A stretch of DNA of 64,000 bases from an uncultured Acidobacteriota bacterium (GTDB lineage: Bacteria > Acidobacteriota > Thermoanaerobaculia > UBA5066 > Gp7-AA6), in the NCBI GenBank assembly GCA_963764025.1, contig CAVXRK010000004.1, positions 586,178 to 650,177 of the forward strand, given 5' to 3'. Position numbers and translations under genes: made by a program. Positions 23,538 to 60,688 of the stretch are shown here, in pieces. The number at the start of each line of letters is the position of its first letter. The stretch's first letter is position 1. Under the pieces are notes generated by a model, which did no database searches, was not told the DNA's origin, and was given only the letters and a program-made list of their open reading frames with translations.

Positions 23538-23625
23538 AACAGGGTCCTGCGACTTAACGAAGAGTCGGCTCAGCGCATTCGACCTCGCCCCGGCGTTTTG
23601 GGGTTAGGAGGGTTACACTGCCGGG

Positions 23626-27171: not shown

Positions 27172-27182
27172 TGGGAGCGGGG

Positions 27183-27192
27183 GGATTCTACC
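27183..27192 (-). promoter_or_regulatory. GGTAGAATCC motif (TAGAAT -10-like) 12 nt upstream of K1 ATG
   Basis: Coding-strand ggtagaatccccccgctcccaATG. The same motif recurs 10-14 nt upstream of the K3 and K7 start codons. Confidence 0.3.
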
Positions 27193-27198
27193 GGAGGC

Positions 27199-29780: not shown

Positions 29781-32361
29781 TTCAAACCGTCGACCAGGTA
29801 GAGGTCCGAGAGCGTCCGCTGGAAGCCGTAGACGTAGGAAGCGCCATCGGGAGTGGTGATGATGGGTGCGATGTCCACGATTCCCGACCCGTCGGCTGGC
29901 ATGACTTCGCGAACGAGCTCCTTCTTTCCGCTGGCGAGGTCCAGCCGATACAGGCGCCCGGGGAGGTCGCGGCGGCGGTAGACGTAGAGGGACTTACCGT
30001 CCGCGCCCCACCCGCCCGGCGACTCGTCGTCGGCGAGTCCCGGGACCGGCGCGGGCTCCCCGCCGGCGAGCGGATAGAAGTAGCGTTTTCGGTCGGGCCC
30101 GCTGACCAGGACCCGGGCGCCGTCCGGCGTCACGCCGCGGGAGAACGATCGGTAGCCCTCCGGGGTCAGCGCCCGCGGTTTTCCGCCGTCGATCGCGATG
30201 ACATAGATGCGCGGTCCCCGATCCGGCTCGTTCGCCGTGAAGACGATGCTCTTTCCGTCGGGCGTGAACGAGCTCCCGCCCTGGGTCTCGAGATCACCCG
30301 TCGCCAGGACCTTTTTCTCGCCGGCCCCCGTCGGATAGAGCGTGATCGTGCGCTTCGGGCGTCCGACCTGGACCGCGGCCCACTGGCCGTCGGGCGACAG
30401 CGCCTGGCCGCCGCCCTCGCCGAGGCGGACCGGAGGCGCGCCATCCGTGCTGCGAATGAAGGTCGAGTACGCCGGGCCGGAGCCCTCGCCGGTCTCGGAA
30501 AAGAGAATCGTCTTCCCGTCATTCGAAAGGTCGAAGAGCGACGACCAGTCGAGCCAGGCGAGCTCCTTCTCCTTGGGCTGGCCTCCTTTTCCGGCGAGGA
30601 TCCCGATGCGGATCGAGTCGTGCGCGACGAGAACGCGCCCGTCCCGCGACACATCCTGCAGCGTGAGGCTCTGCGTCACACGGGCGAGAAGGCGCTCTCC
30701 GCCGTCCAATGAGAAGGCGTGAATGGCCCGATTGCCGCCGACCTTCGCCCCGGTGACCCAGATCTCCTTCCCGCTCGGCGACCATGCGAGGCCGTATTCC
30801 GACGAGAACTCTCCGGCGAGCGAGGTCTTTTTTCCCGACCGGTCGACGACCGCGACCACCCCGCCGTCGTCCCCGCGCTGCGGGTGATCGAGAAAGGCGA
30901 CGTGATTCCCGTCGGGCGAGACCCGCGGATGGCTGATCCAGCCGGCGGTCTGGTAGAGCATCTTGCCCGCGGGAAATTCGAGCTGGTTGCGCAGGTTCAC
31001 GTCCCGGACAATCGCCAGGTCCTTGCCGCCCGGCCCCCAGTCCGCCCACTGCACTTCCTTGTGGATCTCGCGGGGAGCGACGCCACCGCTGACCCCGACT
31101 TCTGCGAGCGTCCCGCTCCGGGTGAACGGTCCGTCGTTGTGGCGATCGAGCGAAACCGCCATTTCCCCGCTCTCCGAGATCGCCAGCAGGTCCGCGCCGA
31201 CGAGGCCGAAGACTCGCGACTCGGGGCGATCCGTCCGGGTCGAGAAGAGCTCGACCGGCCTTCCGTCCCATGCGGCCGCGTAAACCACCGTTTGCCCGTC
31301 AGGCGCGAACCTCGCGGAGTAGACCTCGCCGCGCCGGAAAGTCAGCTGCTGGTAGTTCGGCGGTGGGACGTAGCCCGCCTTCTTGCCGTACCGAAATCCG
31401 GCCGCCAGGCCCGCGGCGATGCCGACCGACGCGGCCAGAAGGGCCGGCCCGATCCAGCGCGACCTCTTCGACACCACGGGCGTCGAAACCGCACCCGTCT
31501 GCGTCGAGATGCTCGAGAGCGACTCCAGGTCGAACGCGACGTCGCGCGCCGACTCGAACCGCTCCTCCGGGTTCTTCTCGAGGCAGTGGCGAACGATCCG
31601 GTCGAGCCCCGGGTGGATTTCCTTGTTGGTCTGCGACAGGTCCGGCGGCTCCTTCGTCAGAATCGCCGTGATCGTGTCCGCCGCCGTGTCGCCCCGGAAC
31701 GCGCGCTGACCGGCCAGCATCTCGTAGAGGATCGTCCCGAAAGCGAAGATGTCCGACCGCCGGTCGGCCGGCTTGCCGCGCACCTGCTCCGGCGCCATGT
31801 AGCCCATCGTCCCGAGCACGACGCCCGGCTGCGTGCCGCCCGAGACCGTTCCCGCATCCGTCTGGCCGGTCTCGCCGCCCTCGATCTTCAGCTTCGCGAG
31901 GCCGAAGTCGAGGATCTTGACCCGCCCGTCCTTCGTCAGGAACAGGTTCTCGGGCTTCAGGTCCCGGTGGACGATCCCCTTCTCGTGCGCCGCGGCGAGT
32001 CCCTTCGCGATCTGGACGGCGTAGTCGATGGCCTTGCGCACCGGGAGCGACCCGGAGAGGAGTCGCGCCCGGAGCGTCTCGCCCTCGAGAAGCTCCGTGA
32101 CGATGTACGGAGCGTCGTCGTGCGTCCCGAAGTCGTGGACCGCCGTGATGTTGGGGTGGTTCAGGACCCCGCGGCCCGCGCCTCCTGCTCGAAGCGCTTC
32201 AGCCGGTCCGGATCCTGCGAGAACGACGCCGGCAGCACCTTGATCGCCACCTCGCGGCCGAGGCGCGGGTCCTTCGCCCGGTAGACCTCTCCCATCCCTC
32301 CGGCGCCCAGCGGCGCGAGGATCTCGTAGGGACCGAGCTTGTTTCCGGCGGAGAGCGTCAT
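29777..32361 (-). pseudogene. STK-TolB propeller kinase paralog K3 (subtype A), 1-bp deletion in a G-run near 32165
   Basis: 66-aa N-terminal [47 protein letters not shown]...EQEARAAGS*; the correct continuation [15 protein letters not shown]... is in the next frame. The 754-aa ORF then carries the rest of the kinase, the TM helix and the propeller (...LYLVDGLK). ATGA overlap with K2. Confidence 0.75.
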
Positions 32362-32387
32362 TAAGGCGGCAGGATTCTAACCGCGAA

Positions 32388-34962
32388 TCACTTGACGCCG
32401 TCGACGAGGTAGAGGTCGGACAGCAGCCGGAAGTAGCCGTAGACGTAGGACTGGCCGTCGCTCGCCGGTCCAGGATTGATGTTCGAGACGCCTGCGGCGT
32501 CGGCCGGCATCAGCGTTCGCCAGAGCTCCTTCTTCCCCGTGGCGAGCTCCAGGCGGTAGGTCTTCGCCGGCACTTCGCTGCGTCGGTGAACATAGAGAAA
32601 GCGGCCGTCGGCGCTGCGCTGGTCGACCGAGTCGTCGTCGTCGAGCCCCGGTATGGGAGCAGGTTCTCCGCCCGCGAGCGGATAGAGGTAACGCCGTCGA
32701 TCCGGGCCGCCGACCACGGTCCACTTTCCGTCGGGAGCGGTGACTCCGGCCAGCGAGTAGCCCTCCGGAGTCAGGGCCCGAGGCTTGCCGCCCGCCACGT
32801 CGAGCCGGAAGACCCGCGAGCCGCGGCCCGGTTCGGCCGCCTCGATGAGAACGCTCTTCCCGTCGGGAACCCAGCCGGCTCCGAAAACCCTGAGACCGTC
32901 GGTCTTGAAGACCTTCATCTCTCCCGCCCGGGTCGGATACGCAACGAGGCGCGGATCGGAGGACGGTGCGCTGGATCGCCAGCGCCCACTCCCCGTCCAG
33001 CGACAGGTCCCGGGCTCCGCCCTCGCCCAGCCTCACGGCCGGCGAGCCGTCCGTCTTCCGTATGTAGACGGAGTACCCGGCGCCTCCTCCCTCCCCGGTC
33101 TCGGAGAAGAGGATCGTCCGGCCGTCGGCGGCGATGGCGGCGCCGAGCGTCCAGTCGAGCCAGGTCATGTCGCGCTCCTTCGTCTCGCCCGGAGCCAGGC
33201 CGACCATCTCGGAACGAAGCGTGTCGCGCGTGACGAGCATGCGGCCTTCCCGCGAGATGTCCTGGAGCGTGAGGCACCCCGGCACCGCGGCGCGGAGCGC
33301 CGCCTTCCCCGAAAGGGTGGTCACGTAGAGAGCGCGGTTGCCCCCGACCTCCGTCGGCCGTGAACCAGATCCGCCCGTCGGCGCCCCACGCGAGCCCCTG
33401 CGCCGACGCAAACGACTGCGAGGCTGTCCGCTTCTTCCCGGAGCGGTCGACCACGGCGATCGACCCGCCGTCGTCCCCGGGCGTGGGATGGTCGTCGAAG
33501 GCCACGAGCTCGCCGTCGGGCGAAACGCGCAGGTGGCTGACCCATCCGCTCGTCTCGTAAACGGTCTTGCCGACCGGGTACTCGATTCGGCTCTTTCCGG
33601 CTCCTCGGAGAGAGACGGCGAGGGCCTTGCCGTCGGGCGCCCAGTCCGCCCACTCCACCCGTTCGAGGATCTCGCGCGGCGCCGCGCCCCCGGCGACGGA
33701 GATCTGCGCGAGCGTTCCCTGGCGGCGGAACCCACTCGACGGATCTCCGGTTGAGCGACACGGCCATGTCGCCCGTTCGCGAGATCGCGAGGACCTCCGC
33801 ACCGACGAGGCCGAACGGCCGCGATTCCGGGCTCTCGGGACGGCCCACGAAGATCTCCATGGGGCCGCCGTCCCAGGCGGAGGAGTAGACGACGGTCTGG
33901 CCGTCCGGTGCGAAGCGCGCGGCATAGATCGTGCCGCGGCGGAAGGTGAGCTGACGGAACGACGGCGTGTCGAACTTCACCGTTCGGCGTCCGAGAAAGA
34001 AGGTCGCCGCCATCCCCGCGAGCGCCAGCGCGGCGGCGAGGAGGAGCGCCCGGCGCGGCCGCGACATCGCCACACCCTTCGCCGCCGCGGCGGCCGCCGC
34101 CGGGGTCGACCCGGACAGCGCCTGGAGGTCGAACGCCAGGTCGTGCGCCGAGTGGAAGCGCTCCTCGGGGTTCTTCTCGAGGCAGTGGCGAACGACGCGC
34201 TCGAGGCCCGGCGCCACGTTCTTGTTCGTCGCCGAGAGGTCGGGCGGCTCCTCGCGCAGGATCGCCGACATGGTCTCGGCGGCCGTGTCGCGGTGGAACG
34301 CGCGCGACCCCGACAGCATCTCGTACAGCACGGCCCCGAACGCGAAAATGTCGGAGCGCGCGTCGGCTGACTTCCCCTTGACCTGCTCGGGCGCCATGTA
34401 GCCGAGCGTCCCGAGGACGACCCCGGGCTCCGTCCCGTCCGCGGTCGGCAGGTTGGTTTGCGGGTTCGGCTGCCCTTCCGGCTGCGTCAGCTTCGCCAGC
34501 CCGAAGTCGAGGATCTTGACCCGCCCGTCCTTCGTCAGGAAGAGGTTCTCGGGCTTCAGGTCGCGGTGGACGATCCCCTTCTCGTGCGCCGCCGCGAGGC
34601 CGCGCGCGATCTGGGTCGCGTAGTCGGTGGCCTTGCGGACCGGCAGGGCGCCGCCCGAGAGCCGCGCCCGGAGCGTCTCGCCCTCGAGGAGCTCCGTGAC
34701 GATGTACGGCGCGCCGTCGTGCGTGCCGAGATCGTGGACCGCCGTGATGTTCGGGTGGTTGAGCCCGCCCGCCGTCTGGGCTTCCTGCTCGAAGCGCCGC
34801 AGGCGCTCGGGATCTCCCGAGTAAGACGCGGGCAGGACCTTGACCGCGACCTCGCGCTTCAAGCCGCTCGTCGCGCGCCCGGTAGACCTCTCCCATCCCT
34901 CCGGCGCCGATCGGCGCGAGGACTTCGTAGGGTCCGAGCTTCGTTCCGGCAGCGAGGCTCAC
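32388..34962 (-). pseudogene. STK-TolB propeller kinase paralog K4 (subtype B), at least 3 frameshifts
   Basis: Four ORF fragments: 34962-34860 [34 protein letters not shown], broken by an extra base in cttGaag; 34862-33321 kinase plus TM; 33925-32915 mid-propeller; 32918-32388 C-terminus ...LYLVDGVK. Confidence 0.7.
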
Positions 34963-37553
34963 TTCAATCCTTCGACCAGGTACAAGTTCGAGAGGTTCCG
35001 GAAGTAGCTGTAGGCATAGGCGCCGTTCGGCGCGTTGACCGGAAGGCGATCAGACTGTTGATCCCGGTCGCGTCGGACGGAAAGAACTCGCGCCAGAGCT
35101 CCTCCCGGCCGGTGTCCGGGATCGAGCGCGAAAAGCCGCATCGGCATCTCGGTCGAGGTCCCCTTGCGCACGAGGATTCGACCGTCCGGGGTCCAGCCCG
35201 CGAGCGAAGACGTCGTCTCGTATCCCGGCACCGGCTTCGGCTCTCCTCCGTCGACCGAGACGACGAATGCCTCGCCCTTCGGTCCCCTTAAGGCGACACG
35301 CTTTCCGTCCGGCGAGACCAGGATCCCCCGGTAGCCCTCCGCGGTCAGCGGCCGCGGTGCGCCGCCCTCGGCGTCGAAGACGTACGTTCGCGCGCCGCGT
35401 GCCCTTTCTCGACGGCGACGCGCGAGAAAGTGCCGCCCGTCGGGCAGCCATCGGGCGATCCGAACGGCGAGATCCGCCGTCCGGGACCTTCTTCGCTTCG
35501 CCGGCGCCCGTCGGATACACGACGATCTCGGGCGCGTCGGGCGCGCCCACGAACGCCAGCACGCGCTTGCCGTCGGCCGAAATGGATTGGGCGTTGCCCT
35601 CTCCCAACCGCACCGCCGGCGAACCGTCGATCGCGCGCAGGTAGACCGAATAGCCCTTTCCTCCGCCCTCGCCCGCTTCGCTGAAAAGCACGGATCGCGC
35701 CGTCGGCGGAGATGTCCGGCATAAGGCTCCAGTCGAGCCAGCTCAGGTCGATTTCCTTCGCGTCGGCCGGCGCCGCGGGCGAGGATGCCGATCTGTCCGG
35801 TGTCGTGCGAGATCAGGACGCGGCCGTCCCGCGATGACGTCCTCGAGCGTCAGCGATCCCGCGACGCGGGCGAGCGTGCGAGTCCGGCCCGAAAGCGTGG
35901 CGGAATGGAGAACACGGTTGCTGCCGACCTCCGCCGCCGTGAACCAGACCTCCGAGCCGTGCGGGCGACCAGGCGAGCCCGTTCGACGACGCGTAGACCG
36001 GGCGAGATGGTCGTCTTTCTTCCCGGCGCGGTCGACCACGGCGACGGATCCGCCGTCATCGTTGACGGCGGGATGGTCCAGGAAAGCGATCCGGGCGCCG
36101 TCGGGCGAGAACCGGGGGTTGCCGATCCAGCCCGCGGTCTCGTACAGGACCTTTCCCGTCGGGAACTCGAGCCGGCACTTGCGGTTCAGGATCCGCACGA
36201 TCGCGAGGTCCTTGCCGTCGGGGGACCAGTCGGCGTACTCGACGTTCTCGAGGAGCTCGCGCGGCGCGCCGCCGGTCGCGCTGACCCGCGCGAGCGTGCC
36301 GGTACGCGTGAAGGCCGTGTCGAAGTCGGCTTTGAGGATGACGGCCACCTCTCCCGATGCGGAGACGGCGGCGACGTCGGCGCCGGGAAGGCCGAACGGC
36401 CGCGACTCGGGGCTGTCGGGCCGGCTGACGTAGATCTCGGCCGGCTTTCCGTCCCAGGCCGCCGTCGTCAGGATCGTTTTTCCGTCGGAGCCGAAGCGCG
36501 CGCCCCAGATGGCGCCCTTGCGGAAGGTGAGCTGGCGGAAGGTCGGGGGCTCGGCTCGTTCCCTTCCCGTGGCCGAGGAAGTAGCCCAGGGCGACGGCCG
36601 CCGCGAGAGCGGCGGCGCCGACGGCGTACGGAACGACGCGCGCCCGGGCCGGCCGATCGGGCACCGCCGAAACCGCCGTCGACGCCGGTCGTGCCCGACA
36701 GCGCCTCGAGATCGAACGCCAGGTCGTGCGCCGAGTGGAAGCGCTCCTCGGGATTCTTTTCGAGGCAGTGCCGCACGACGCGGTCGAGCCCCGGCGCGAC
36801 GTTCTTGTTCGTCGCCGAGAGGTCCGGCGGGTCCTCCCGCAGGATCGCCGACATCGTCTCCGCCGCCGAGTCGCGGTGGAAGGCGCGCGAGCCCGAGATC
36901 ATCTCGTAGAGGACGGCGCCGAACGAGAAGATGTCCGAGCGCGCGTCGGCCTTCTTTCCCTTGACCTGCTCGGGCGCCATGTAGCCGAGCGTGCCGAGGA
37001 CGACGCCGGGCTCGGTGCCGTCGGCGGTCGGCAGGTTCGTCTGCGGCCCGGCCGCGCCGTCGGCCTGCGTCAGCTTGGCGAGACCGAAGTCGAGGATCTT
37101 GACCCGGCCGTCGTTCGTGACGAAGAGGTTCTCGGGCTTCAGGTCCCGGTGAACGATCCCCTTCTCGTGCGCCGCGGCGAGCCCGCGGGCGACCTGGATC
37201 GCGTAGTCGGTGGCCTTGCGCACGGGCAGCGCGCCGCCCGAGAGCCTCGCCCGCAGCGTCTCGCCCTCGAGGAGCTCCGTGACGATGTACGGCGAACCCT
37301 CGAACGCGCCGAGCTCGTAGACCGAGGTGATGTTCGGGTGGTTGAGCCCGCCGGCCGACTGCGCCTCCTGCTCGAACCGGCGCAGGCGCTCGGGGTCCTG
37401 CGCGAACGACGAGGGCAGCACCTTGACCGCGACGTCCCGCTTCAGCCGCTCGTCGCGCGCCCGGTAAACCTCGCCCATCCCTCCGGCGCCGAGGAGGCCG
37501 AGGACCTCGTAAGGACCCAACTTCGTCCCGGCGGCGAGACTCAAAGGGACCAC
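34959..37553 (-). pseudogene. STK-TolB propeller kinase paralog K5 (subtype B), multiple frameshifts
   Basis: N-terminal 361-aa kinase ORF (..[53 protein letters not shown]..). Propeller pieces in two other frames (..[24 protein letters not shown]..; ..MLFSEAGEGGGKGYSVYLRAIDGSPAVRLG..; ..LYLVEGLK). ATGA overlap with K4. Confidence 0.7.
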
Positions 37554-37698
37554 CGCACTTTCTGCCCGTCATTCCGAGGAGCGAAGCGACGAGGAATCCC
37601 GCGCTCGACGCGCCGCCGGGTGGTCCGAGCCCGGGATGCCTCGCTGCGCTCGGCATGACGGCGAGTGTCGAGAATCAATTTCAACCCTTCTAACCGAC

Positions 37699-40270
37699 TC
37701 ATTTGAGGTTCTTCACCTGATACAGCGTCGAGAGAACCCGAACGACCCCGACGATCACCGTCCGACCGTCCGGCGTCACGCGCACCGGTCCGAAGGAGGT
37801 CACACCCCCGGAATCGCCGCCGGAGAGCTCCCGGACTCGGGTCCGACGGCCGGAAGCGATGTCGATCAGGTCGAGCTTGCACGGGATCCCCTGCTGGGAG
37901 ACGTACAGGCCCTTCCCGTCCGCCGTCCATCCCGCCGGCGAGTCCGCGGGCAGGGAGGCCGCCAGATCGGTCGCGGACCCTCCGCCGAGCGGGTAGAGGT
38001 GCACCCGCGTATCCGGGCCGATGGCGGCGATCCAGCGCGAGTCCGGAGAGACGAAGTGACGCGCCGAGGAGATTCCCTCCTGGCTGATCGCTTTCGGCGC
38101 GCCTCCGGCGAGGTCCTGCACGTAGAGGCGGCTCCCCCGCCCCGGGGCGTTCGCCACGAATACGAACTTCGTTCCGTCTGGAACGAAGGCCCCATACGAC
38201 GTTCGTCCGAGGTCGTCGGGCGGAAAAGACTTCGGCTGTCCGATCTTCACCGGCACGAGCACGAAGTGCTGCGGATTCGAAAACACCCGGGTCAGCGCCC
38301 ACGCGGAATCGGGCGACAGGGCGATTCCGACGCCGTCACCCAGCCGAACGGCGGGAGCGCCGTCCGTCGGCCGCAGGTACACTCCGCCCGCCGGCCCTCC
38401 GCCTTCCCCCGACTCGTCGAACAGCATGAGCTTGCCGTCCACCGAGAGGGCGCGGTCGCTCGACCAGTCGAACCAGGTCAGATCCTTCCCGGCCGGCTCC
38501 CCGGGCCCGAAGACGGCCACGCTCGACCGGTAATCGTCCTCCGTGATCAGAGCGCCTCCGTCCTTCCTCACGTCGAGAAGCGCCGGAGTTCCCTGCATCG
38601 TCCGGATCAGCCGGAGCTTGCCCGCCGGAGTGACGCCGTAGACCATGCGCTCGATGCCTTCCCGCGCCGCCGTGAACCAGATTTCGCGACCGTCCGGCGA
38701 CCACGCCAGGCCCTGCACCGTGGCCCATCCTTCGGAGAGATCGGTCTTCTTGCCGGCGAGATCGACGATCGCGATCGCGCCGTCGTCTCCCGCCGAAGAG
38801 TGGTCGATGAACGCGATCCTGCGTCCGTCCGGAGCAAAGCGCGGATTCTGCATCCAGCCCGCCGTCTCGTAGAGAACCTTGCCGATCGGATATTCCAGTC
38901 GATCCTTGCCTCCCGTGCGGCGCATCACGGCGAGCTCGGACCCTCCCGGCGCCCATTCGGCGTAGCCGACGTCGGCCAGCACTTCCTTGGGAGCTGCGCC
39001 CGACAGCGGCACTCGGGCGAGCGTCCCGTGGAGCGCGAAGCCGTTCACGTTGTAATTCGGCTCGAGCAGGACCGCCATCTCGCCGGAGGACGAGATCGAC
39101 AACAGTTCCGCCGCCGGCAGCGGAAGCGTGGAGGATTCCGGGTTCCCGGGTCGCAGCGAGTAGATCCGGGGAGCAGCCCCGCTCCAGGCGGCCGTGTAGT
39201 AGACCGTGCTGCCGTCGGGCCCGAATCGCGCCGTGCTGACGGTGCCGCGCTGAAACGTCAGGCGCTGAAAGGTCGGCTGTGTCGACGATCCGGTGCGGCG
39301 GCCGCGCGTACAGCCCCAGGAGGGCGCCCACGACGGCCGCCAACCCCAGAAGAGCCCAGGGCCGTCGCGCGCGTTTCGCGGGGAGCGCCCGCACGCCCGT
39401 GATCGCCGGTGACGACAGACCCGAAAGCGCTTCGAGATCGAAGGCGACGTCCCTCGCCGACTCGAACCGCTCCTCCGGATTCTTCTCGAGACAGTGCCGC
39501 ACGATCCGGTCCAGCCCGGGTGGCACGTCCTTGTTCGTCTGCGAAAGATCCGGCGGCTCCTTCGACAGGATCGCCGTGATCGTGTCCGCCGCGGTGTCGC
39601 CGCGAAACGCCCTCTGCCCCGAGAGCATCTCGTACAGGATCGTCCCGAAGGCGAAGAGATCGGACCGCTTGTCGGCCGACTTCCCGCGCACCTGCTCGGG
39701 CGCCATGTAACCCATCGTCCCGAGCACGACTCCCGGCTGAGTCCCGCCCGAGACCGTTCCGGCGTCCGTCTGACCGCTCTCCGCGCCGTCCAGCTTCAGC
39801 TTCGCGAGGCCGAAGTCGAGGATCTTGACCCGCCCATCCTTCGTCAGGAACACATTCTCGGGCTTCAGGTCGCGGTGGACGATCCCCTTCTCGTGCGCGG
39901 CCGCGAGACCCTTCGCGATCTGCACGGCATAGTCGATCGCTTTGCGCGGCGAGATGGCGCCGGGCCCGAGCCGGCTGCGCAGAGTCTCGCCTTCGAGGAG
40001 CTCCGTGACGATGTACGGCGCGTCGTCGTGCTCGCCGAAGTCATAGACCGCCGTGATGTTCGGATGGTTCAGCGCCCCGGCCGCCTGGGCCTCCTGCTCG
40101 AAGCGCTTCAGGCGATCCGCGTCCTGCGAAAACGACGCCGGCAGCACCTTGATCGCCACGTCGCGCTTGAGCCGCTCGTCCCGCGCGCGGTAGACCTCCC
40201 CCATCCCGCCCGCCCCGATCGGCGAGAGGATCTGGTAGGGACCGAGCTTCGTGCCGGCGGCCAGGGTCAT
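37699..40270 (-). pseudogene. STK-TolB propeller kinase paralog K6 (subtype A), single +1 insertion near 39270
   Basis: 644-aa N-terminal ORF ([44 protein letters not shown]...TM..TADL) and 467-aa C-terminal ORF (..[16 protein letters not shown]...VLSTLYQVKNLK). An extra T in gaccTTTcag separates them; correcting it gives [27 protein letters not shown]. Confidence 0.75.
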
Positions 40271-40271
40271 T

Positions 40272-40480
40272 TCAGATTCCGGGTCCAGTAAAGAGTCGAG
40301 AGAACAGAGTGAACCCCAACGTCATCGTTTTCCCGTCGGGCGTGACGCGTGCCGAACCACGGGCTGTCATGCCGGCGAGGTCAGTGGCAGACAGGTCGCG
40401 AACGTGCGTTCGAGCTCCGGAGACGATGTCGAACGAGTGAACGAGCGACTTGCCTTCCCATTTGCCGCCGAGGCAAACGC
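40272..40480 (-). pseudogene. 3' remnant (last ~70 codons) of a further kinase-propeller paralog
   Basis: ..[56 protein letters not shown] resembles the K6 C-terminus (..LIDIASGRRTRVRELSG..VRVTPDGRTVIVG..LSTLYQVKNLK). Its stop lies 1 nt before the K6 ATG. Confidence 0.55.
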
Positions 40481-40585
40481 CGGTCTGACGACCGGCGTCA
40501 AGCTCGGCGTCGCCTCCGGCAGGCGGTCTGCCTTCGGTGGCCGGCTCCACGGTCCGCGAAGCGGACCGCTAGAGGTCCGTGCCAT

Positions 40586-43165
40586 CTACCGGAGACCATC
40601 CACGACGTAGAGATCCGCGAGACTGCGCGCGAAGGAGTAGGCGTAGTACTTCTCGTCGGGCGTGATCCAGACTGGCGAGATCAGCCAGATGCCGGCCGGG
40701 TCGGGAGGCATGAGCTCTTTCCAGAGCTCCTTGCGACCCGTGGCGACATCGAGCTTCATGACGCGCTGCGGCACTTCTCCGCGGACGCGCACGAACAGGA
40801 AGCGGCCGTCGGCAGTCCAACCGCTCGGAATGTCTCCCTTCACGAGCCCCGGGATCGGCGCTGGCTCTCCGCCCGCGACCGGATAGAGATAGAAGCGCTG
40901 GTCCGGGCCGACCACCGTCAGAGCCTTGCCATCGCGAGAGCCTCCCCTCGCGAACATCCGGTAGCCCTCCGGTGAGACGGGCTTCGGTTTCGCGTCGTCC
41001 AACCCCTGCACCCAGAGGCGCGACCCGCGATCCGGCTCGCTTCCGGAGAAGACGATCCGGCGGCCGTCCGGCAGCCAGTCCGCCTGCTCGATCCGGATCG
41101 CCGTCGCCGGCAGCATCTTCGGCTCGCCCGCGCCTATCGGATAGATCGCGAAGCGATAGAGCGCGCCCTGCTTGACGATCCCGAGCGCCACGCGGCCATC
41201 CGGAGAAAATTCCGCGGCCACGCCGCCCCCGAGTCGCACCGCGGGCGACCCATCCGCCTTCCGAACGTAGACGGTGTTACCGCCCGAGCCTTCGCCGCTC
41301 TCGTCGAAGAGCAGCGTCTGGCCGTCGGGAGTGACGTCGCGAATGAGCGACCAGTCGAGCCAGGCGAAGTCGCGTTCCTTCTCTCCACCGGGGAGCAACC
41401 CGGAGATCCCCTGGCGGGCTTTCTCCTGCGTGACGAGCACTCGCCCGCTCTTTGCGACGTCCTGGATCGTGAAACCGCCGGTCCCCTGGGCGAGGATTCG
41501 GACTCGGCCGGAGCGGGAGGCGGCGCAGAGCGCCCGCGTGAAGCCCTCCTTCGCCCCCGTGAACCAGACCTCGGAGCCGTCCGGCGACCACGCGAGCCCC
41601 TGTGCGCTGACGAAGAGGCCGGAGATCACGACTCGCTTACCCGAGCGGTCGACGATCATTGCCGTTCCCGCGTCGTCGCCCTGAGCCGGGTGGTCGAGAA
41701 ACGCCACCTCGTCGCCCTTCGGCGAGACCCGCGGATGGGAGATCCAACCGGCGGTCTCGTACAGGACCTTGCCGACGGGATACTCGAGCCGGACCTTTCC
41801 GCCCTGCTGCCGAACGATGGCGAGACTCTGGCCGTCCGGGGCCCAATCGGCCCACAGCACGTCCTCGAGGACCTCCTTCGGCGTGCCGCCGCCCGTCATG
41901 CCGAGGCGCGCGAGCGTGCCGGTACGAGTGAACGGGATCGAGCCGTGGCGATTCAGCGACACCGCCATCTCTCCGGAAGGCGAGACCGCCAGCACCTCCG
42001 CGTTCGCCAGGCCGAACAGGCGCGACTCCGGATTGTCCAGCCGCGAGACGAACACCTCCATGGGGCGGCCGTCCCAGTTCGCCGAGTACAGGATCGTCTG
42101 TCCGTCCGGAGCGAAGCGCGCGGAGGCCATCACGCCCCGCCGGAACGTGAGCTGGTGAAACGTCGGCGGCGGCACGTATCCGGCGCGCTTCCCGACCCAG
42201 TAGGCCGCCGCGATTGCCGCGAGCGCAACGCCGACGCCGACCAGAAGCGGCAGGCGGCGGCCTCCGACCGGCACGCGCAACTTTTCGAGAGTGGGCTTTG
42301 AAGCGGAGGACCCGGAGAGCGCCTCGAGATCGAAGGCGAGGTCGTGTGCCGAGTGGAACCGCTCCTCGGGGTTCTTCTCCAGGCAATGGCGCACGACGCG
42401 CTCGAGGCCCGGCTGCACGCTCTTGTTCGTCGCCGACAGATCCGGCGGCTCCTCCCGCAGAATGGCCGACATCGTCTCGGCCGCGGTGTCCCGATGGAAA
42501 GCGCGAGCGCCCGAGAGCATCTCGTAGAGCACCGCCCCGAACGCAAAAATGTCGGAGCGCGCGTCGGCGGTCTTGCCCTTGACTTGCTCCGGCGACATGT
42601 AGCCGAGCGTCCCCATCACGACGCCCGGCTCCGTCGCCGGAGGCGCGGTCGGGAAATTCGTCTGCGGACCCACCGCGCCGTCGGCCTGCGTCAGCTTGGC
42701 GAGACCGAAGTCCAGGATCTTGATCCTCCCGTCGTTGGTCACGAACACGTTCTCGGGCTTGAAGTCCCGGTGAACGATTCCTTTCTCGTGCGCCGCGGCG
42801 AGGCCCCGGGCCATCTGGATCGCGTAGTCCGTGGCCTTCCGCACGGGAAGGGCTCCCCCGGAGACGCGGGCGCGCAGCGTCTCCCCCTCGAGAAGCTCGC
42901 TGACGATGTATGGAGAGCCCTCGTAGGAACCCAGCTCGAACACCGCGGTGATGTTGGGATGGTTGAGCGACCCTGCGGCCTGCGCCTCCTGCTCGAACCG
43001 CTTGAGGCGATCGGTGTCCTGCGTGAACGACGGTGGGAGGACCTTGACCGCGACGCTGCGTTTCAAACGCTCGTCCCTGGCGCGGTAAACCTCGCCCATT
43101 CCCCCGGCGCCGATCGGCGCGAGGATCTCGTAGGGGCCGAGCCTTGTTCCCGAGGACAGCGTCAT
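40586..43165 (-). CDS. Ser/Thr protein kinase with TM helix and C-terminal TolB/PD40-like beta-propeller (K7, intact, subtype B)
   Basis: 859 aa from ATG (cat at 43163-43165). [44 protein letters not shown]...HRDFKPENVF..DFGLAK..; TM LPLLVGVGVALAAIAAAYWV; propeller to ..LYVVDGLR. GGGTAGAATCG lies 14 nt upstream. Confidence 0.9.
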   Translation of the reverse strand: MTLSSGTRLGPYEILAPIGAGGMGEVYRARDERLKRSVAVKVLPPSFTQDTDRLKRFEQEAQAAGSLNHPNITAVFELGSYEGSPYIVSELLEGETLRARVSGGALPVRKATDYAIQMARGLAAAHEKGIVHRDFKPENVFVTNDGRIKILDFGLAKLTQADGAVGPQTNFPTAPPATEPGVVMGTLGYMSPEQVKGKTADARSDIFAFGAVLYEMLSGARAFHRDTAAETMSAILREEPPDLSATNKSVQPGLERVVRHCLEKNPEERFHSAHDLAFDLEALSGSSASKPTLEKLRVPVGGRRLPLLVGVGVALAAIAAAYWVGKRAGYVPPPTFHQLTFRRGVMASARFAPDGQTILYSANWDGRPMEVFVSRLDNPESRLFGLANAEVLAVSPSGEMAVSLNRHGSIPFTRTGTLARLGMTGGGTPKEVLEDVLWADWAPDGQSLAIVRQQGGKVRLEYPVGKVLYETAGWISHPRVSPKGDEVAFLDHPAQGDDAGTAMIVDRSGKRVVISGLFVSAQGLAWSPDGSEVWFTGAKEGFTRALCAASRSGRVRILAQGTGGFTIQDVAKSGRVLVTQEKARQGISGLLPGGEKERDFAWLDWSLIRDVTPDGQTLLFDESGEGSGGNTVYVRKADGSPAVRLGGGVAAEFSPDGRVALGIVKQGALYRFAIYPIGAGEPKMLPATAIRIEQADWLPDGRRIVFSGSEPDRGSRLWVQGLDDAKPKPVSPEGYRMFARGGSRDGKALTVVGPDQRFYLYPVAGGEPAPIPGLVKGDIPSGWTADGRFLFVRVRGEVPQRVMKLDVATGRKELWKELMPPDPAGIWLISPVWITPDEKYYAYSFARSLADLYVVDGLR

Positions 43166-43230
43166 GAAAGCTGGCGCGATTCTACCCGCAGTCGTGGCGT
43201 ATTCTTGCGCCGCTTCCAAGAGAGGTGAAC

Positions 43231-45438
43231 ATGCTGCGTCGAGGAACTTCGAGCCATGCCGCGATCCTCCTGCTCGCCGCGCTCCCGGCGCTGGCCCAGA
43301 CGCCCCGCGATCTGACCGTCGACTGGATCTACGGCGAGGAAGCGACCTCGGCTGCGAAGGTCCCGAAGTTCGCCTGGACGAGCGGAGGCGAGCTGCTCCT
43401 CCTCGACGAAACCGCACCGCCGGCGACGCGCACGATCGAGCGGGTGACGCCAAAGACGGGGCAGCGGACGGCGGCCGTCGATGCGGCGGCGGCCCTGGCG
43501 AGCCTGAAGGCCATCTCGCCGAAGTCGGTGCCCGAGACCCTGCCCTGGCCCGAGGCGCTCGATCCCGCCGGGAGGACGGCCATCTACGTGATCGGCGACG
43601 ATCTCTATTCGCTCGATCTGGCGGCATCTCGTTTCGAGCGCCTGACGCGGACCGACGCGGCCGAGTCGCTCCCGCGTGTCTCCCCGGATGGACGAAGGGT
43701 CGCCTTCGTGCGCGCCAACGACCTGTGGGTCCTCGACCTCGCGACGAAAGCCGAGACCCGGCTGACCTCTGACGGCAGCGACACGATCCTGAACGGCACG
43801 TTGTCCTGGGTCTACTGGGAGGAAATCTTCGACCGCGGGGACACGGGGTTCTGGTGGTCTCCCGACTCCTCCGCGATCACGTTCCTGCGGACCGACGAGT
43901 CCGCGGTCGACGTCTCGCTGTTCACCGACTTCTCGCCCGCGGTTCCGCGCGTCATCAAGCAGCGCTATCCGCGGACCGGCGGCGCCAACCCCACAGTCCG
44001 CCTCGGCATCGCCGACGTCTCCGGCCGGAAGACGGCGTGGATGGATTCCTCGGAAGTCCCGTACGAGTACGTCCTCGGCGTCGATTGGCTGCCGGACAGC
44101 CGCTCGGTCGCCGTTCAGACGACCAACCGCGCCCAGACGAAGCTCGACGTCTGGCGGTTCGACCGCGCGACGGGCAAGACGGCGCTGGTGCTCTCCGAGG
44201 CCGACCCGGCCTTCGTCTACCAGAAAGAGATCCAGTTCTCCGACGGCGGAAAGACCTGGATCGTGACTTTCGAGAGCGGCGGCCACACGCACCTTTTCCG
44301 CTACGGCGCCGATGGTGTCCGCCGGAACGCCGTGACGCAGGGCCCCTGGTCGGTCCGCGGGCCGGGCACGTTCTACGGCGCGCCCAAGGGCTCGGCCTTC
44401 GTCGACGACGCCGCGGGCCTCGTCTACTTCACCTCGATCGAGAAGTCGCCCCTCGAGCGCCACCTCTACCGGATCCGGCCGGACGGAACGGGGATGGCGC
44501 GCATCACCCGCGAGGACGGCATGCACCGGGTCGCCCTCTCACCCGACCGCCGCTACTACGTCGACACGTATTCGAACCGCGACACCCTGCCGTCGCTTTC
44601 CCTCCACGACATCTCGGGCAAGAGCGTCGCGACCCTGTCCCCGAGCCGGATGGAGGTCCTCGCGCCGTACGCCCTCGCGAAACGGGAGCTCATCACGATC
44701 CCCGCGCCCGACGGGTTCGCCATTCCGGCGAGCCTGTTGAAGCCCGCGTCCCTCGACTCCTCGAAGAAGTACCCCGTCCTCATCCACGTTTACGGCGGCC
44801 CCGGCGCGCCGATCGTCCAGAACCGATGGGAACGCGACGGCCTGTTCGACCAGCTTCTCGTCTCGCAGGGCTACGTCGTGGCCTCGTTCGATCCGCGGAG
44901 CGCGACCGGGCAGAGCAAGGCCCTCGAGGATCTGGTCGTCCGCCGGATGATGAGCGACGTCGAGCTCGGCGATCTCCAGACGGCGGTCAAGTGGCTCAAG
45001 GCTCAGTCCTGGGCCGACCCGGCGCGGTTCGGCATCTGGGGCTGGAGCGGCGGCGGCTCGTACACGCTCCTCGCGATGACGCGCACGCAGGAGTTCAAGG
45101 CCGGCATCTCCGGCGCACCCGTCACCGACTGGCACTTCTACGATTCCAAGTTCGGCGAGGCCTACATGAAGACCGCCGAGGACAACCCCGAGGGGTACGC
45201 GCTGACGTCGTTCGTCAAGCGTGCGAAGGACCTGTCGGGGCGCCTGCTCCTCGTCTTCGGGTCCTATGACGACAACGTCCACCCGCAGAACGAGTGGGCC
45301 TTCGCCGACGCCCTGATCGCGGCAGGAAAGCCGTTCGACATCATGGTCTACCCGATGCGCAAGCACGGCTTCGTCGACAAGCCGGCGATCCGCCACCGGG
45401 CCGCAAAGATGCTGGAGTTCTGGAAGCTGTACCTGTAG
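43231..45438 (+). CDS. Dipeptidyl-peptidase IV (S9B prolyl oligopeptidase family: N-terminal propeller plus alpha/beta hydrolase), secreted
   Basis: SD aagagagg. MLRRGTSSHAAILLLAALPALAQ signal. ..WSPDGRRVAFVR.. propeller. C-terminal ..GIWGWSGGGSYTLLAM... (GWSGG nucleophile elbow). Confidence 0.85.
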   Translation: MLRRGTSSHAAILLLAALPALAQTPRDLTVDWIYGEEATSAAKVPKFAWTSGGELLLLDETAPPATRTIERVTPKTGQRTAAVDAAAALASLKAISPKSVPETLPWPEALDPAGRTAIYVIGDDLYSLDLAASRFERLTRTDAAESLPRVSPDGRRVAFVRANDLWVLDLATKAETRLTSDGSDTILNGTLSWVYWEEIFDRGDTGFWWSPDSSAITFLRTDESAVDVSLFTDFSPAVPRVIKQRYPRTGGANPTVRLGIADVSGRKTAWMDSSEVPYEYVLGVDWLPDSRSVAVQTTNRAQTKLDVWRFDRATGKTALVLSEADPAFVYQKEIQFSDGGKTWIVTFESGGHTHLFRYGADGVRRNAVTQGPWSVRGPGTFYGAPKGSAFVDDAAGLVYFTSIEKSPLERHLYRIRPDGTGMARITREDGMHRVALSPDRRYYVDTYSNRDTLPSLSLHDISGKSVATLSPSRMEVLAPYALAKRELITIPAPDGFAIPASLLKPASLDSSKKYPVLIHVYGGPGAPIVQNRWERDGLFDQLLVSQGYVVASFDPRSATGQSKALEDLVVRRMMSDVELGDLQTAVKWLKAQSWADPARFGIWGWSGGGSYTLLAMTRTQEFKAGISGAPVTDWHFYDSKFGEAYMKTAEDNPEGYALTSFVKRAKDLSGRLLLVFGSYDDNVHPQNEWAFADALIAAGKPFDIMVYPMRKHGFVDKPAIRHRAAKMLEFWKLYL

Positions 45439-52615: not shown

Positions 52616-53101
52616 TCAGGCTTCTCGAAAACTGCGAAACGCCGACCGGGGCAGGCGGCCCATGAGCGACAAGCAGCCCGGGAAGAGCTCCTTCGGCAAC
52701 CCGCCGGGCACGCGGACCATCGACCGGGCCCGCCGCCGGAAGCCCGACGGCGTCTCGCCGACGCGGCGCGTGAAGAGATCGCTGAAGCTGCCGAGGCTCG
52801 AGAAGCCGACCTCCATGCAAACTTCCGTGACGGAAAGTTCGCCAATGGCCAGCAGACGCCGGGCCCGATCGAGCCGCGCCTCGATTCGGTACTGATGCGG
52901 CGTCGAGCCGAACAGGGCATCGAACTGGCGGATGAGGTGGAAAGGCGAGATCCCGACCAGCCGAGCCACTTCCTCGACCGACGGGGATCGGTCGGAGATC
53001 CGCTGCAGGACCTCCCGGCGGCGCGGCAAAGTGCCCGGAAGGACTCGGGCGAGAGCCTCATCGAAGACAAAGTCTAGCCGCAGACCAATCCGAAAGATCA
53101 C
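52616..53101 (-). CDS. AraC-family HTH regulator, apparently lacking the usual N-terminal sensor domain
   Basis: Possible GTG start at 53099-53101. ..EEVARLVGISPFHLIRQFDALFGSTPHQYRIEARLDRARRLLAIGELSVTEVCMEVGFSSLGSFSDLFTRRVGETP (tandem AraC HTH). The longer ORF-track N-terminus is translation of a family-A repeat arm. Confidence 0.5.
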   Translation of the reverse strand: MIFRIGLRLDFVFDEALARVLPGTLPRRREVLQRISDRSPSVEEVARLVGISPFHLIRQFDALFGSTPHQYRIEARLDRARRLLAIGELSVTEVCMEVGFSSLGSFSDLFTRRVGETPSGFRRRARSMVRVPGGLPKELFPGCLSLMGRLPRSAFRSFREA

Positions 53102-53127
53102 GGGGTCAGGTCTCGATTTTTCGGTCT
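53102..53127 (+). repeat. Solo arm of repeat family A (ggggtcaggtctcgatttttcggtc)
   Basis: Adjacent to the tRNA-Ser repeat complex and to the 5' end of the AraC-like gene. Confidence 0.6.
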
Positions 53128-53174
53128 TCGGACCTGGGTGGGGTCGGCACCTGACTTCACGCTCGGTTTCCGCG

Positions 53175-53619
53175 CTAGGATGCGCCCCTTCCACCCGAGC
53201 GGAGAGGTGCTGGAGTGGTTGATCAAGCCGGTCTCGAGCCGACCACCGACCCGACCACCGAAGGCAGGCCCCCGGCAGTAGGGAACGCCGTGCGAAGCAC
53301 GGCGGTTTCGGCAGACCCCCAGCAGTAGGCAGCGTCGCGCGAAGCGCGGCGCTTACGCGGTAGGCCCGACCGGGCTGCCACTTTCAGCGCACCTGACATC
53401 GCGCCCCGATTCCGCTAGGATTCGCCGTCCCACCCGCGCGGAGAGGTGCTGGAGTGGTTGATCAGGCCGGTCTCGAGCCGACCACCAGAGGCAGACCCCC
53501 GGCAGTAGGCAGCGTCGCGCGAAGCGCGGCGCTTACCCGGTAGGCCCGACCGGGCTGCCACTTTCAGCGCACCTGACATCGCGCCCGGATTCCGCTAGGA
53601 TTCGCCGTCCCACCCGCGC
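53175..53619 (+). repeat. Tandem repeat (units of about 239 and 180 bp) duplicating the upstream region plus the first 37 nt of tRNA-Ser, each fused at the anticodon loop to a family-B-containing ~100-bp element
   Basis: cgctagga...ccacccg.gcGGAGAGGTGCTGGAGTGGTTGATCA.GCCGGTCTCGA|gccgaccacc..cagtaggcagcgtcgcgcgaagcgcggcgcttac.cggtaggcccgaccgggctgccactttcagcgcacctgacatcgcgccc.gattc occurs twice (5' halves begin at 53201 and 53440) before the complete tRNA at 53620. Confidence 0.85.
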
Positions 53620-53709
53620 GGAGAGGTGCTGGAGTGGTTGATCAGGCCGGTCTCGAAAACCGGTAGGCCCGAAAGGGTCTCGTGGGTTCAAATCCCACCC
53701 TCTCCGCCA
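53620..53709 (+). tRNA. tRNA-Ser (anticodon CGA), class II with long variable arm
   Basis: ggagaggtgctggagtggttgatcaggccggtCTCGAaaaccggtaggcccgaaagggtctcgtgggttcaaatcccaccctctccgcca. Confidence 0.9.
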
Positions 53710-53881
53710 TTAATGCTGCCTCGAGACAGTCGTGGGTTCACCCGACCACCAGCGGCAGACCCCCGGCCGTAGGGAGCCGACCAGCGGAGATCCACCCCCC
53801 GGCCGTAGGCAACGCTGGTCCGAAGGCCAGCGGTAACCCACGCTGCGCGCAGCGCAGCGGTAAATCCCACCCTCTCCGCCA
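53710..53881 (+). repeat. Downstream repeat block: two family-B cores and a duplicated 3' end of tRNA-Ser (att-like)
   Basis: ..gaccaccagcggcagacccccggccgtaggg.. and ..caccccccggccgtaggcaac.. followed by aaatcccaccctctccgcca (53862-53881), identical to the last 20 nt of the tRNA. Confidence 0.75.
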
Positions 53882-53967
53882 CTTCGATCCACCTGCCGAA
53901 GGTCACCGGATCGGATCGATCGGCGTGCGCTTGGGCTCCTTGCCGAAGCGGATCCGGGACTTCTCGA

Positions 53968-54207
53968 TCATGCTTGCGGATCTCGACATCGCGATCCTTC
54001 GGCGGGGCGCTGCGTCACCCACCCATGGACCAGGCGCTCGGCCGCCGCAGCGACCTCGTCCACCGTGCGATGGAACAACGCTTCATTGGCGCGCGAGGGT
54101 TTGTTGGCCCCGCTCAGCTTGCGGACGAACTGAAGCGAGGAGGCTCGGATCTCGGCCGCGGTGGCCGGGGGCGCGAAGTTGGCCAGGGTACGGATGTTGC
54201 GGCACAT
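53968..54207 (-). CDS. DUF2277-family small protein
   Basis: MCRNIRTLANFAPPATAAEIRASSLQFVRKLSGANKPSRANEALFHRTVDEVAAAAERLV... (MCRNI.TL.NF.PPAT signature). Confidence 0.7.
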   Translation of the reverse strand: MCRNIRTLANFAPPATAAEIRASSLQFVRKLSGANKPSRANEALFHRTVDEVAAAAERLVHGWVTQRPAEGSRCRDPQA

Positions 54208-60392: not shown

Positions 60393-60688
60393 CTAGGTGT
60401 GATTTCTCAACACGTTGTTCACGGCCACGGATCGCGGCTGGGCGGCCTTTTTCCCCCTCTCCCGGCGGGAGCCGTCCACCAGAGGCAGACCCACGGCGGT
60501 AGGCAACACCGGCGTGAGCCGGTGGTATCGGGTCGGGGCGAGGGGAACTCCTCGCTCGATCTGCCCACAACGCTCCTCATCTGGCCCGAGGTCCCAACCC
60601 CCTCACCCTGCCCTCTCCCCCTTTCGGGGGGAAGGGTTCTCCTATTTGACGTTCACCGGTGAACAACGTCCTGAGAAACGACACCTAG
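60393..60688. mobile_element. 296-bp non-autonomous MITE-like element bounded by ~30-bp imperfect terminal inverted repeats, carrying a family-B core and a CCCTCTCCCC hairpin
   Basis: Left ctaggtgtgatttctcaacacgttgttcac versus reverse complement of right ctaggtgtcgtttctcaggacgttgttcac (26/30). Interior 60463-60650 is homologous to 10945-11130 (reverse complement). Confidence 0.5.

Follow-up and report, generated by a model that had tools for sequence, protein, structure and literature searches.

The described family that comes nearest to the element reported here is that of the GTAG-tagged repetitive extragenic palindromic (REP) sequences, which are mobilised by RAYT/TIRYT-type (Y1 HUH) transposases. 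They are 20–40 nt long, are essentially a palindrome, and form sub-families in which stem changes are compensatory and G.T pairs and 1-nt bulges occur (PMC3733652). Among such transposases, those of Acidobacteria make up a group of their own (PMC3733652). Elements of the IS200/IS605 type insert 3′ of a short specific sequence without target duplication, and Rickettsia palindromic elements (RPE; mentioned in PMC3733652) are small structured repeats that sit inside genes, RNA genes included. Partial tRNA genes, in turn, are classical signs of integrated elements (PMC9897764). Here we analyse a 64,000-nt stretch of DNA from an uncultured Acidobacteriota bacterium (hereafter the window), in which a serine tRNA gene, tRNA-Ser(CGA), stands among partial copies of itself that carry a short interspersed repeat, which we call B. 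Our analysis indicates that B is probably a REP-like, single-strand DNA element that resides in redundant copies of gene ends, and that the tRNA array has been resized by unequal recombination. What makes the finding interesting is the repeat family itself: where it prefers to insert, how it occupies all serine tRNA genes and how it seems to be coupled to duplications that regenerate the interrupted gene.

One working tRNA-Ser(CGA) gene amid partial copies

The first-pass annotation of the window had described the DNA upstream of tRNA-Ser, together with tRNA nt 1–37, as occurring three times in tandem with periods of 239 and 180 bp, only the third occurrence continuing into a complete tRNA. 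Both points were borne out. A repeat finder recovered ∼59 nt of upstream DNA plus nt 1–37 three times at these spacings (tRNA parts at 53201–53237, 53440–53476 and 53620–53656), and ARAGORN, which reports three tRNAs in the whole window, and Rfam agree on a single intact gene at the locus, tRNA-Ser(CGA) at 53620–53709 on the + strand (Table 1). The sequence of this gene is identical in the window and in four of the loci compared below (L016, L019, L113 and L047). The 5′ copies end in CCGGTCTCGA, that is, they run through the third anticodon base. Copies 2 and 3 correspond to a 180-bp unit detected by Tandem Repeats Finder (1.9 copies, 98% identity). Copy 1 shares 87% identity with the functional unit over 91 nt (−50 to +37) and is, judged from its sequence, the oldest of the upstream copies. 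Its promoter occupies the ancestral position, adjoining an AraC-type gene, and its −10 region variant, GATGCGCCCCTTCC, is the same as that of the single promoter in the closest relative among the loci, L019.

Searching for the B core gave five matches at the tRNA locus plus one at 60484, and none in 100 shuffles of the sequence. The 5′ halves had previously been described as joined to an element of roughly 100 bp at the point where the tRNA breaks off. B is indeed present behind both dead 5′ halves, but the inserts are not uniform, measuring 151 nt (two B, one of them 5′-truncated) and 92 nt (one B), and the tRNA does not end there. In both upstream copies the sequence after B, CCGGTAGGCCCGA (53357–53374 and 53537–53554), matches tRNA nt 41–53, and the counterpart of this remnant in L016 matches the tRNA at 18/18 nt. 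As the tRNA resumes after B, the partial copy is longer than its 5′ half, and B is placed within its anticodon loop rather than at its terminus. On the downstream side, the last 20 nt of the tRNA, AAATCCCACCCTCTCCGCCA, recur 152 nt past the gene, after two B cores, as had been noted before. This repeat is preceded by GTCGTGGGTTCA, which comprises the 5′ strand of the T stem and half of the T loop, so the downstream module is a T-arm/3′-end fragment with two B elements in its T loop. Overall, the locus holds one working tRNA-Ser(CGA) gene amid decaying partial copies: two with promoter and 5′ part upstream, and one with T arm and 3′ end downstream. An intron-containing or split tRNA gene was considered and rejected, given that the upstream modules have no T arm or 3′ end, the downstream module has no nt 1–60, and substitutions have accumulated. 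The first B element of the array additionally shows an internal 12-nt duplication of its own 5′ end (Tandem Repeats Finder) and a predicted hairpin, CGCCGTGC-GAA-GCACGGCG (DNA fold).

Table 1. Annotated features of the tRNA-Ser(CGA) locus, in window coordinates
Feature	Position	Strand	Evidence and remarks
Upstream/promoter region, copy 1	53147..53200	+	Repeat search; 87% identity over −50..+37
tRNA-Ser(CGA) nt 1–37, dead copy 1	53201..53237	+	One substitution, in the anticodon stem
B element 1, full length	53238..53309	+	nhmmer match 53248–53309, E=2e-14
B element 2, 5′-truncated, without GCCGACCACCnnA	53310..53362	+	nhmmer profile positions 17–69, E=4e-10
tRNA nt 41–53 remnant (GCGGTAGGCCCGA...) and ∼15 nt of unassigned junction sequence	53357..53388	+	Repeat search
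Promoter copy 2, CTGACA-17 nt-TAGGAT at 53393–53421	53389..53439	+	Promoter by consensus match only; the repeat itself found by repeat finders
tRNA-Ser(CGA) nt 1–37, dead copy 2	53440..53476	+	99% identical over −59..+37
B element 3, canonical, in the anticodon loop after ...CTCGA	53477..53542	+	nhmmer E=2e-16
tRNA nt 41–53 remnant (CCGGTAGGCCCGA) and junction sequence	53537..53568	+	Repeat search
Promoter copy 3, CTGACA-17-TAGGAT at 53573–53601, ahead of the functional gene	53569..53619	+	Consensus match
tRNA-Ser(CGA), sole intact copy at the locus	53620-53709	+	ARAGORN; Rfam 56.6 bits
19-nt spacer 3′ of the tRNA	53710..53728	+	Also in L019, L077, L113
T-arm 5′ piece (GTCGTGGGTTCA) of dead 3′ fragment	53729..53740	+	tRNA-relative nt 61–71
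B element 4, core only, without hairpin, at TTCA^AAT in the T loop	53741..53775	+	nhmmer profile positions 3–40, E=6e-7
B element 5, variant core (GAGATCCACCCCCCGGCCGTAGG), own hairpin and second short hairpin	53776..53861	+	nhmmer E=2e-5; fold
Rest of T loop, T-stem 3′ strand, acceptor 3′ strand and CCA of dead 3′ fragment	53862..53881	+	20/20 identical

The upstream repeats do not follow the integrase rule

Duplications made by integrases normally span the distance from the crossover point to the tRNA 3′ end, and the anticodon loop, the T loop and the 3′ end were reportedly named by Williams in 2002 as the usual crossover sub-sites of tRNA-targeting integrases. The partial copies had been read as scars left by a tyrosine integrase that integrated and excised repeatedly. 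On this view, crossover would take place in the anticodon or T loop, and B would be an element remnant or att core. The places where B is found in tRNAs (anticodon loop, T loop and 3′ CCA end) are those that such integrases are said to favour, the downstream module, running from the T arm to the 3′ end, is attR-like, and L047 and L090 have tandem copies of the tRNA 3′ end that lack B. The downstream module is, however, the sole part of the locus that fits the integrase repeat rule. The upstream repeats extend from −59 to +37 and thus comprise promoter and 5′ part, not crossover point to 3′ end, and the 92–151 nt between repeats hold only B and promoter DNA. No integrase, recombinase or transposase domain was detected when 20 open reading frames between 43.8 and 63.6 kb, which covers ∼10 kb to each side of the locus, were scanned with Pfam, in line with the earlier remark that no integrase lies nearby. 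Moreover, B occurs at >160 unrelated sites, including the ends of protein genes and other repeats, unlike an att core of one or a few genes, and has no match in viral, phage or plasmid collections. We consider an origin by integrase highly improbable. From the earlier interpretation, a mobile element with tandem amplification remains: B is repeated and apparently mobile, copies 2 and 3 are nearly identical and the number of modules varies, and it is the att-site origin that falls away.

The locus shares with attL/attR duplications (PMC9897764) the partial copies beside an intact gene and the breaks in the anticodon loop, T loop and 3′ end. It differs from them in that there is no island and no integrase, the 5′ halves bring promoter DNA with them, and the interrupting sequence is a genome-wide repeat.

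B is a structured repeat of Thermoanaerobaculia

A pattern scan for exact GGCAGACCCMCGGCNGTAGG in one genome per species returned at least 113 stretches. Among the matches listed, all but one came from Acidobacteriota/Thermoanaerobaculia assemblies, the remaining one being recorded as Bryobacteraceae. The same scan of a viral contig collection gave no match, nor did BLAST of B against phage and plasmid records. We built a B profile from the pattern-scan matches and ran nhmmer over the 113 loci (8-kb contig blocks) and the window, which yielded 164 copies of a 60–70-nt interspersed element with a precise 5′ boundary across all of them. All loci compared here were thus chosen for containing B. 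Nine copies lie in the window: at 11067–11110, 23417–23487 and 40487–40547, five at the tRNA locus, and at 60469–60529. Most copies are intergenic (148/164, 90%), with a depletion in divergent, promoter-containing spacers. In Rfam 15, only tRNAs and the signal recognition particle RNA passed the gathering thresholds over the whole window, leaving B unmatched, and relaxing the threshold to E up to 10 over 53000–54000 gave nothing credible across B. A ‘Pseudomon-groES’ match on the opposite strand was dismissed as sub-threshold (28 bits, the gathering score being 50). Neither the B element nor the tRNA-Ser anatomy with B turned up in a search of the literature. B is thus a lineage-specific, high-copy and apparently mobile repeat that has not been described before.

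An alignment of 98 sequences, on which the structural counts below are based, gave the consensus GA|GCCGACCACCrrAGGCAGACCCCCGGCAGTAGGCAAC-hairpin-GGTAA(C). Its GTAG head does not vary at T37, A38 and G39, with at least 90% conservation at G36, and the 3′ end is variable, with a short form (...GGTAA) and a long form (...GGTAACTCGA). RNAalifold and explicit pair counts support a fold in which a 3-bp helix closes a conserved 29-nt loop and stacks on a 10-bp hairpin that starts 3 nt after GTAG and shows many compensatory changes. The first pair of the 3-bp helix is G-C in 69 sequences, C-G in 26 and U-A in 3, and is broken in none. Across the alignment 93.8% of cells are paired, compared with 79.5% after shuffling and ≤36% when the partners are slid, and compensatory double changes are found in 168 cells where 51 are expected. 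On the tRNA-sense strand, wobble pairs are of the G.T type in 17 cases and A.C in 2, indicating that this is the strand that folds. The hairpin loops conform to C-GNA-G in 67/98 sequences (GAA 34, GCA 23, GGA 7 and GTA 3), a motif known for extraordinarily stable DNA mini-hairpins (PMC13037366, PMC3201870), which points to a structure that would act at the level of DNA rather than RNA. A DDE-type miniature inverted-repeat transposable element was rejected, as inspection of the alignment (not formally scored) revealed no terminal inverted repeat and B makes no short target-site duplication.

B sits mostly at GA^A, often in exposed loops, and is linked to serine tRNA genes

Where an uninterrupted copy of the flank exists, the junction of B is mostly GA^A (TCGA^AAA, TGGA^AAG, TTCGA^ATC, ATGA^ACA and AGGA^ACA). 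Exceptions are the D-loop junction in tRNA-Ser(TGA), which follows GGTTT, and a few loci where the intact copy lacks GA at this point. Flank repeats of 6–11 nt are hardly enriched (24.8% at k≥6 and 16% at k≥15; control 6%), and we found no short target duplication. Many copies occupy the loops of stem-loops: the D, anticodon and T loops of tRNAs, the position directly after CCA, and the space between the arms of other hairpin repeats. The copy at 60469–60529, for example, has the two arms of a CCCCTCTCCC...GGGGCGAGGGG hairpin-type repeat on its flanks.

Serine tRNAs account for 24 of the 41 tRNAs in B-containing loci, with CGA, GGA, TGA and GCT anticodons all represented, and 22 of the 24 lie within 400 nt of a B copy. 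B and the tRNA share a strand in 28 of 29 cases. At these genes B either occupies the D, anticodon or T loop of a partial copy or follows CCA directly, and the intact gene is never interrupted. The tRNA-Ser(GGA) loci repeat the design seen at tRNA-Ser(CGA), with one to three copies of promoter and nt 1–37 followed by B, while B is in the D loop at tRNA-Ser(TGA) and in the T loop of a 3′ fragment at tRNA-Ser(GCT). The preference of B for exposed loops and GA^A would explain this link, as only NGA anticodons followed by A37 place GA^A in the anticodon loop; from the genetic code we infer that tRNA-Ser alone offers such a site there.

The window also contains a Ser-GGA locus (23300–23560, − strand), which has two copies of the TAGGAT promoter plus nt 1–37. 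A full B (23417–23487) follows copy 1, whereas copy 2 runs via a B with an internal deletion (CCGAC/GGACGGCGGTAAT) into a 3′ end that has degenerated (TCCCCCCATCGTACCGCCA). ARAGORN found no intact tRNA-Ser(GGA) in the window; the gene is present in the orthologous loci L074, L087, L101 and others. Recombination between upstream and downstream B copies thus appears to have deleted the tRNA-Ser(GGA) gene at this locus.

Other arrangements were observed at serine tRNA genes. At 6700–7110 in L013, the two strands of a B hairpin (AGCGGCGGCCGC ... GCGGCCGCCGCT) enclose an intact tRNA-Ser(GGA) and its promoter, and this tRNA-enclosing B itself sits in the T loop of an older pseudo-copy that also has B in its anticodon loop. 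The B-free tandem repeats of the tRNA-Ser(CGA) 3′ end are ∼19 nt long and are found at 7790–7840 in L047 and, in L090 (− strand), just 3′ of the tRNA at 6334–6423; in L090 a B-containing T-loop/3′-end module is inverted and upstream of the gene.

Module number changes while partial copies decay

We compared the window with orthologous Ser-CGA loci. The closest relative, L019, has 91.7% identity over 3 kb and the same AraC-type and DUF2277 neighbours, and carries a single promoter and tRNA with no upstream module and two tandem downstream modules, so that the pair of B elements 4 and 5 occurs twice. Upstream and downstream modules number 2 and 1 in the window, 1 and 1 in L077, 2 (one degraded) and 1 in L113, and 1 and 0 in L016, giving a range of 0–2 on either side across the orthologous loci. 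The hairpin sequence of the upstream B (element 3) is common to the window, L077, L113 and L016, and the insertion of this B is therefore old and shared. Copies within one genome, on the other hand, share variants that are missing from their orthologues, which indicates concerted evolution, as expected from unequal recombination and gene conversion between units. The number of Ser-CGA modules has changed repeatedly.

These data also bear on whether the array has a function. It could be a functional RNA array, in which B is a processing or stability element or a small RNA and transcripts of 5′ half and B, chimeras resembling tRNA halves, are regulatory and tied to serine decoding. In favour of this view, a promoter-like CTGACA-17-TAGGAT is retained in each unit, B and the tRNA share a strand, the covariation of B comes with strand-specific, G.U-compatible wobble, and the architecture is common to several species and to all serine isoacceptors. 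A stable multi-promoter array conserved among relatives had been put forward as the observation that would speak against a mobile element; the architecture is indeed shared, but module numbers are not stable, and the closest relative has no upstream unit at all. The partial copies gather disruptive substitutions and deletions (identity is 87% for copy 1 of the window and 90% in L016; one unit is deleted in L113, and one is degraded in L047), and this decay argues against a conserved function. In addition, B is antisense at protein genes, where it is flanked by useless 3′ gene fragments, its C-GNA-G loops are of the DNA type and it belongs to no Rfam family. A functional RNA array is therefore an unlikely explanation. 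An origin at the RNA level, by reverse splicing or tRNA-primed reverse transcription, was likewise judged unlikely, because promoter DNA upstream of the transcription start is duplicated, B is antisense to the protein genes that it interrupts, and the loops are of the DNA mini-hairpin type.

B is associated with duplicated gene ends

The combination of a gene fragment, B and an intact gene is not confined to tRNAs. The 40 nt on the 5′ side of B recur within 400 nt downstream for 28% of copies, compared with 1.3% of random positions, and 11 of 13 young (≥90% identical) long-period tandem repeats contain B. The same order of gene fragment, B and intact gene was observed at the 3′ end of uvrB (L014 and L103; gene named by eye from its C-terminal sequence) and at many members of a family of large secreted proteins that makes up 37 of the 198 B-adjacent genes. 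The duplicated length ranges from 18 to 145 nt. Two architectures occur. At Ser-GGA, Ser-TGA, uvrB and the secreted-protein genes, the position of B coincides exactly with the duplication junction, and at Ser-CGA and in L013 B is within a longer partial copy. Most copies of B, ∼72–84% depending on the measure, have no duplicated flank.

Copies with a flank duplication appear to be those that interrupt genes. We conclude that insertions within genes are kept by selection only where the gene end has been regenerated, and, judging from how common the pattern is, B itself seems to provoke the duplication. A primary event in which an existing unit of B and flank was simply duplicated in tandem was rejected, because in most arrays the first gene fragment has no B on its left.

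Members of the secreted-protein family (L086, L029, L053, L064, L084, L092, L096 and others) have repeated VTRAQMA modules, an N terminus that resembles sugar dehydrogenase (judged by eye) and, in the members inspected, a C terminus reading ...VKTFNLQ before the stop codon, or a close variant. In these genes B is usually ∼27 nt before the stop codon, on the opposite strand, with the gene end regenerated.

A different account of the duplications takes B as a hot spot of replication or recombination that spreads by microhomology-mediated template switching, in the manner of microhomology-mediated break-induced replication (MMBIR) or fork stalling and template switching (FoSTeS), with B itself as the filler that is copied from a different locus into duplication junctions, and no dedicated enzyme. 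The exact placement of B at the junctions just named, a short GA microhomology at most junctions, the frequency of B in young duplications and their variable lengths would all fit such a process. Passive copying is difficult to reconcile with the majority of copies that have no flank duplication and with the precise 5′ boundary, and the conserved 29-nt core and covarying helices point instead to recognition by a protein. Template switching without an enzyme thus seems improbable as the source of B.

Relation of B to known small elements

B resembles GTAG-tagged REPs (PMC3733652) in being short, high-copy and extragenic and in having GTAG 5′ of a 9–10-bp GC-rich hairpin, its 10-bp stem lying within the 6–13-bp range that defines REP stems. 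It likewise forms compensatory sub-families with G.T pairs and a one-base bulge or mismatch, makes no target-site duplication and seems to be inherited vertically within one lineage. Distinct from REPs, many B copies are in the loops of other stem-loops, including tRNA loops, and are tied to gene-end duplication. With IS200/IS605 elements B shares insertion 3′ of a short specific sequence, mostly GA^A, the missing target duplication, a fixed strand orientation and, presumably, reliance on folded single-stranded DNA. As a proxy for the lagging-strand-template bias of such elements, the co-orientation of B with tRNA genes is 28/29. At each end, IS200/IS605 elements carry a sub-terminal hairpin, and their right-end cleavage site is defined, whereas B has one main hairpin and a variable 3′ end, and we know of no TnpA for B. 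RPEs are similar to B as small structured repeats inside genes, RNA genes included, but they are tolerated in-frame in functional genes, whereas B is found only in dispensable duplicated gene ends. As no partner enzyme has been identified, B is only treated as working like a REP or IS200-type single-strand DNA element, and we do not claim membership in either family.

Several observations weigh against this assignment and against the explanation that we favour. With 60–70 nt, B is about twice the size of a REP, and its conserved segment of ∼29–30 nt closed by a covarying 3-bp helix is an arm that REPs do not have. Inverted pairs are rare (2 of 164 copies, in L034 and L109 only), unlike the REPIN (REP doublet forming hairpins) and BIME (bacterial interspersed mosaic element) dimers, and clustered B copies are direct. 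A tblastn search with an E. coli RAYT (Y1) sequence, a weak test, had no match in 927 kb, and no RAYT gene flanked by B was found there. The B core could pair into a longer helix on the opposite strand by using G.T pairs, and the assignment of the folding strand is carried by the 10-bp hairpin only. Because all loci were selected for B, no pair of filled and empty sites of a simple insertion was recovered, and the mobility of B is deduced from dispersal, precise boundaries and nesting. Finally, tandem repeats of the 3′ end occur without any B at two loci (L047 and L090), and the Ser-CGA arrangement, with B inside a longer copy, is compatible with duplication having come first; the position of B at the duplication junction at Ser-GGA, uvrB and other sites suggests that insertion and duplication are coupled.

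A model for insertion and regeneration of gene ends

On balance, we favour a single-strand DNA element in redundant gene ends as the probable explanation. Insertion into a functional gene would be lethal, and B would therefore be seen only in copies made dispensable by a short local duplication. In the proposed mechanism, B would move in single-stranded form, the reaction being carried out in trans by an HUH/Y1 (RAYT- or IS200-like) enzyme whose gene is elsewhere in the genome. Replication would stall at the very stable B hairpin, the nascent strand would pair with the sister nascent strand and copy the B-free gene end, and it would re-anneal at or just past B, leaving a fragment, B, in some cases a tail, and an intact gene, with variable breakpoints. 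Stalling and template switching with variable breakpoints would account for both architectures, B at the junction and B inside the copy. Selection would retain only those events that regenerate the gene, and once two units are present, unequal homologous recombination between the 180-bp units could grow or collapse the array. In this model the tRNA array is a by-product: dead copies of gene ends held by a selfish repeat and resized by recombination.

A stronger version, which we put forward only tentatively, is that B is a new kind of single-strand DNA element that targets loops and inserts by a mechanism which also regenerates the gene end that it interrupts (‘self-healing’), with 20–150 nt copied anew, either through hairpin-stalled replication or through transposase-primed re-synthesis. 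If so, a selfish repeat could colonize essential single-copy genes, namely all four serine tRNA genes and uvrB, as well as a large secreted-protein family, and would at the same time seed tandem arrays that are able to delete the gene later.

If the favoured explanation is correct, B represents an undescribed family of structured repeats that pervades Thermoanaerobaculia, a poorly studied soil lineage, and it explains the recurrent anatomy of the serine tRNA loci there. From its link with duplicated gene ends, a route emerges that may let small selfish DNA into essential genes without killing the host. The same route would yield promoter-bearing gene fragments and tandem arrays, and may also remove genes, as appears to have happened to tRNA-Ser(GGA) at its locus in the window. 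In practical terms, the tRNA fragments will mislead tRNA annotation, as well as genomic-island finders that read partial tRNA repeats as att sites.

Further observations

The Pfam domains between 43.8 and 63.6 kb are all of housekeeping type and belong to MacB/FtsX exporters, a tRNA adenosine deaminase, a glyoxalase, an AraC-type regulator, DUF2277, an ABC transporter and an extracytoplasmic function (ECF) sigma factor. On the opposite strand at 53477–53510, the B core can form an 11-bp helix with four G.T pairs, and the variable core positions 18–19 change only between purines, which would keep this pairing.

Around the B copy at 60469–60529 (60440–60650), a similar CCCCTCTCCC...GGGGCGAGGGG repeat without B lies at ∼60590–60640. 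Taken as a whole, this hairpin repeat family, which reads GGGGTGAGGGG in most other loci, fits GGGGWSAS, the motif of repeats flanking TIRYT transposase genes (PMC3733652), although the copy in the window has GGGGCGAG. At 1675–2650 in L034, a proC-like gene (pyrroline-5-carboxylate reductase by translation) is enclosed by two inverted B copies, each preceded by the same 17 nt, TTTTGAGCGGCGCTCGA; a transposase cassette was rejected here, the enclosed gene looking like proC by eye from its translation.

In the window, the B copy at 40487–40547 (− strand) is directly downstream of a kinase-like paralogue and has a second small hairpin nested in its main hairpin loop, a form also found in L042, L053, L076, L084 and L111. 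This paralogue is one of seven in tandem at 24568–43876 (− strand; period ∼2.6–2.9 kb, 60–89% nucleotide identity), which resemble Ser/Thr kinases by motif and have a repeat-rich C-terminal part. Finally, a 56-nt unit present twice at 96% identity (10801–10911) lies ∼150 nt from a 3′-truncated B (11067–11110, − strand).

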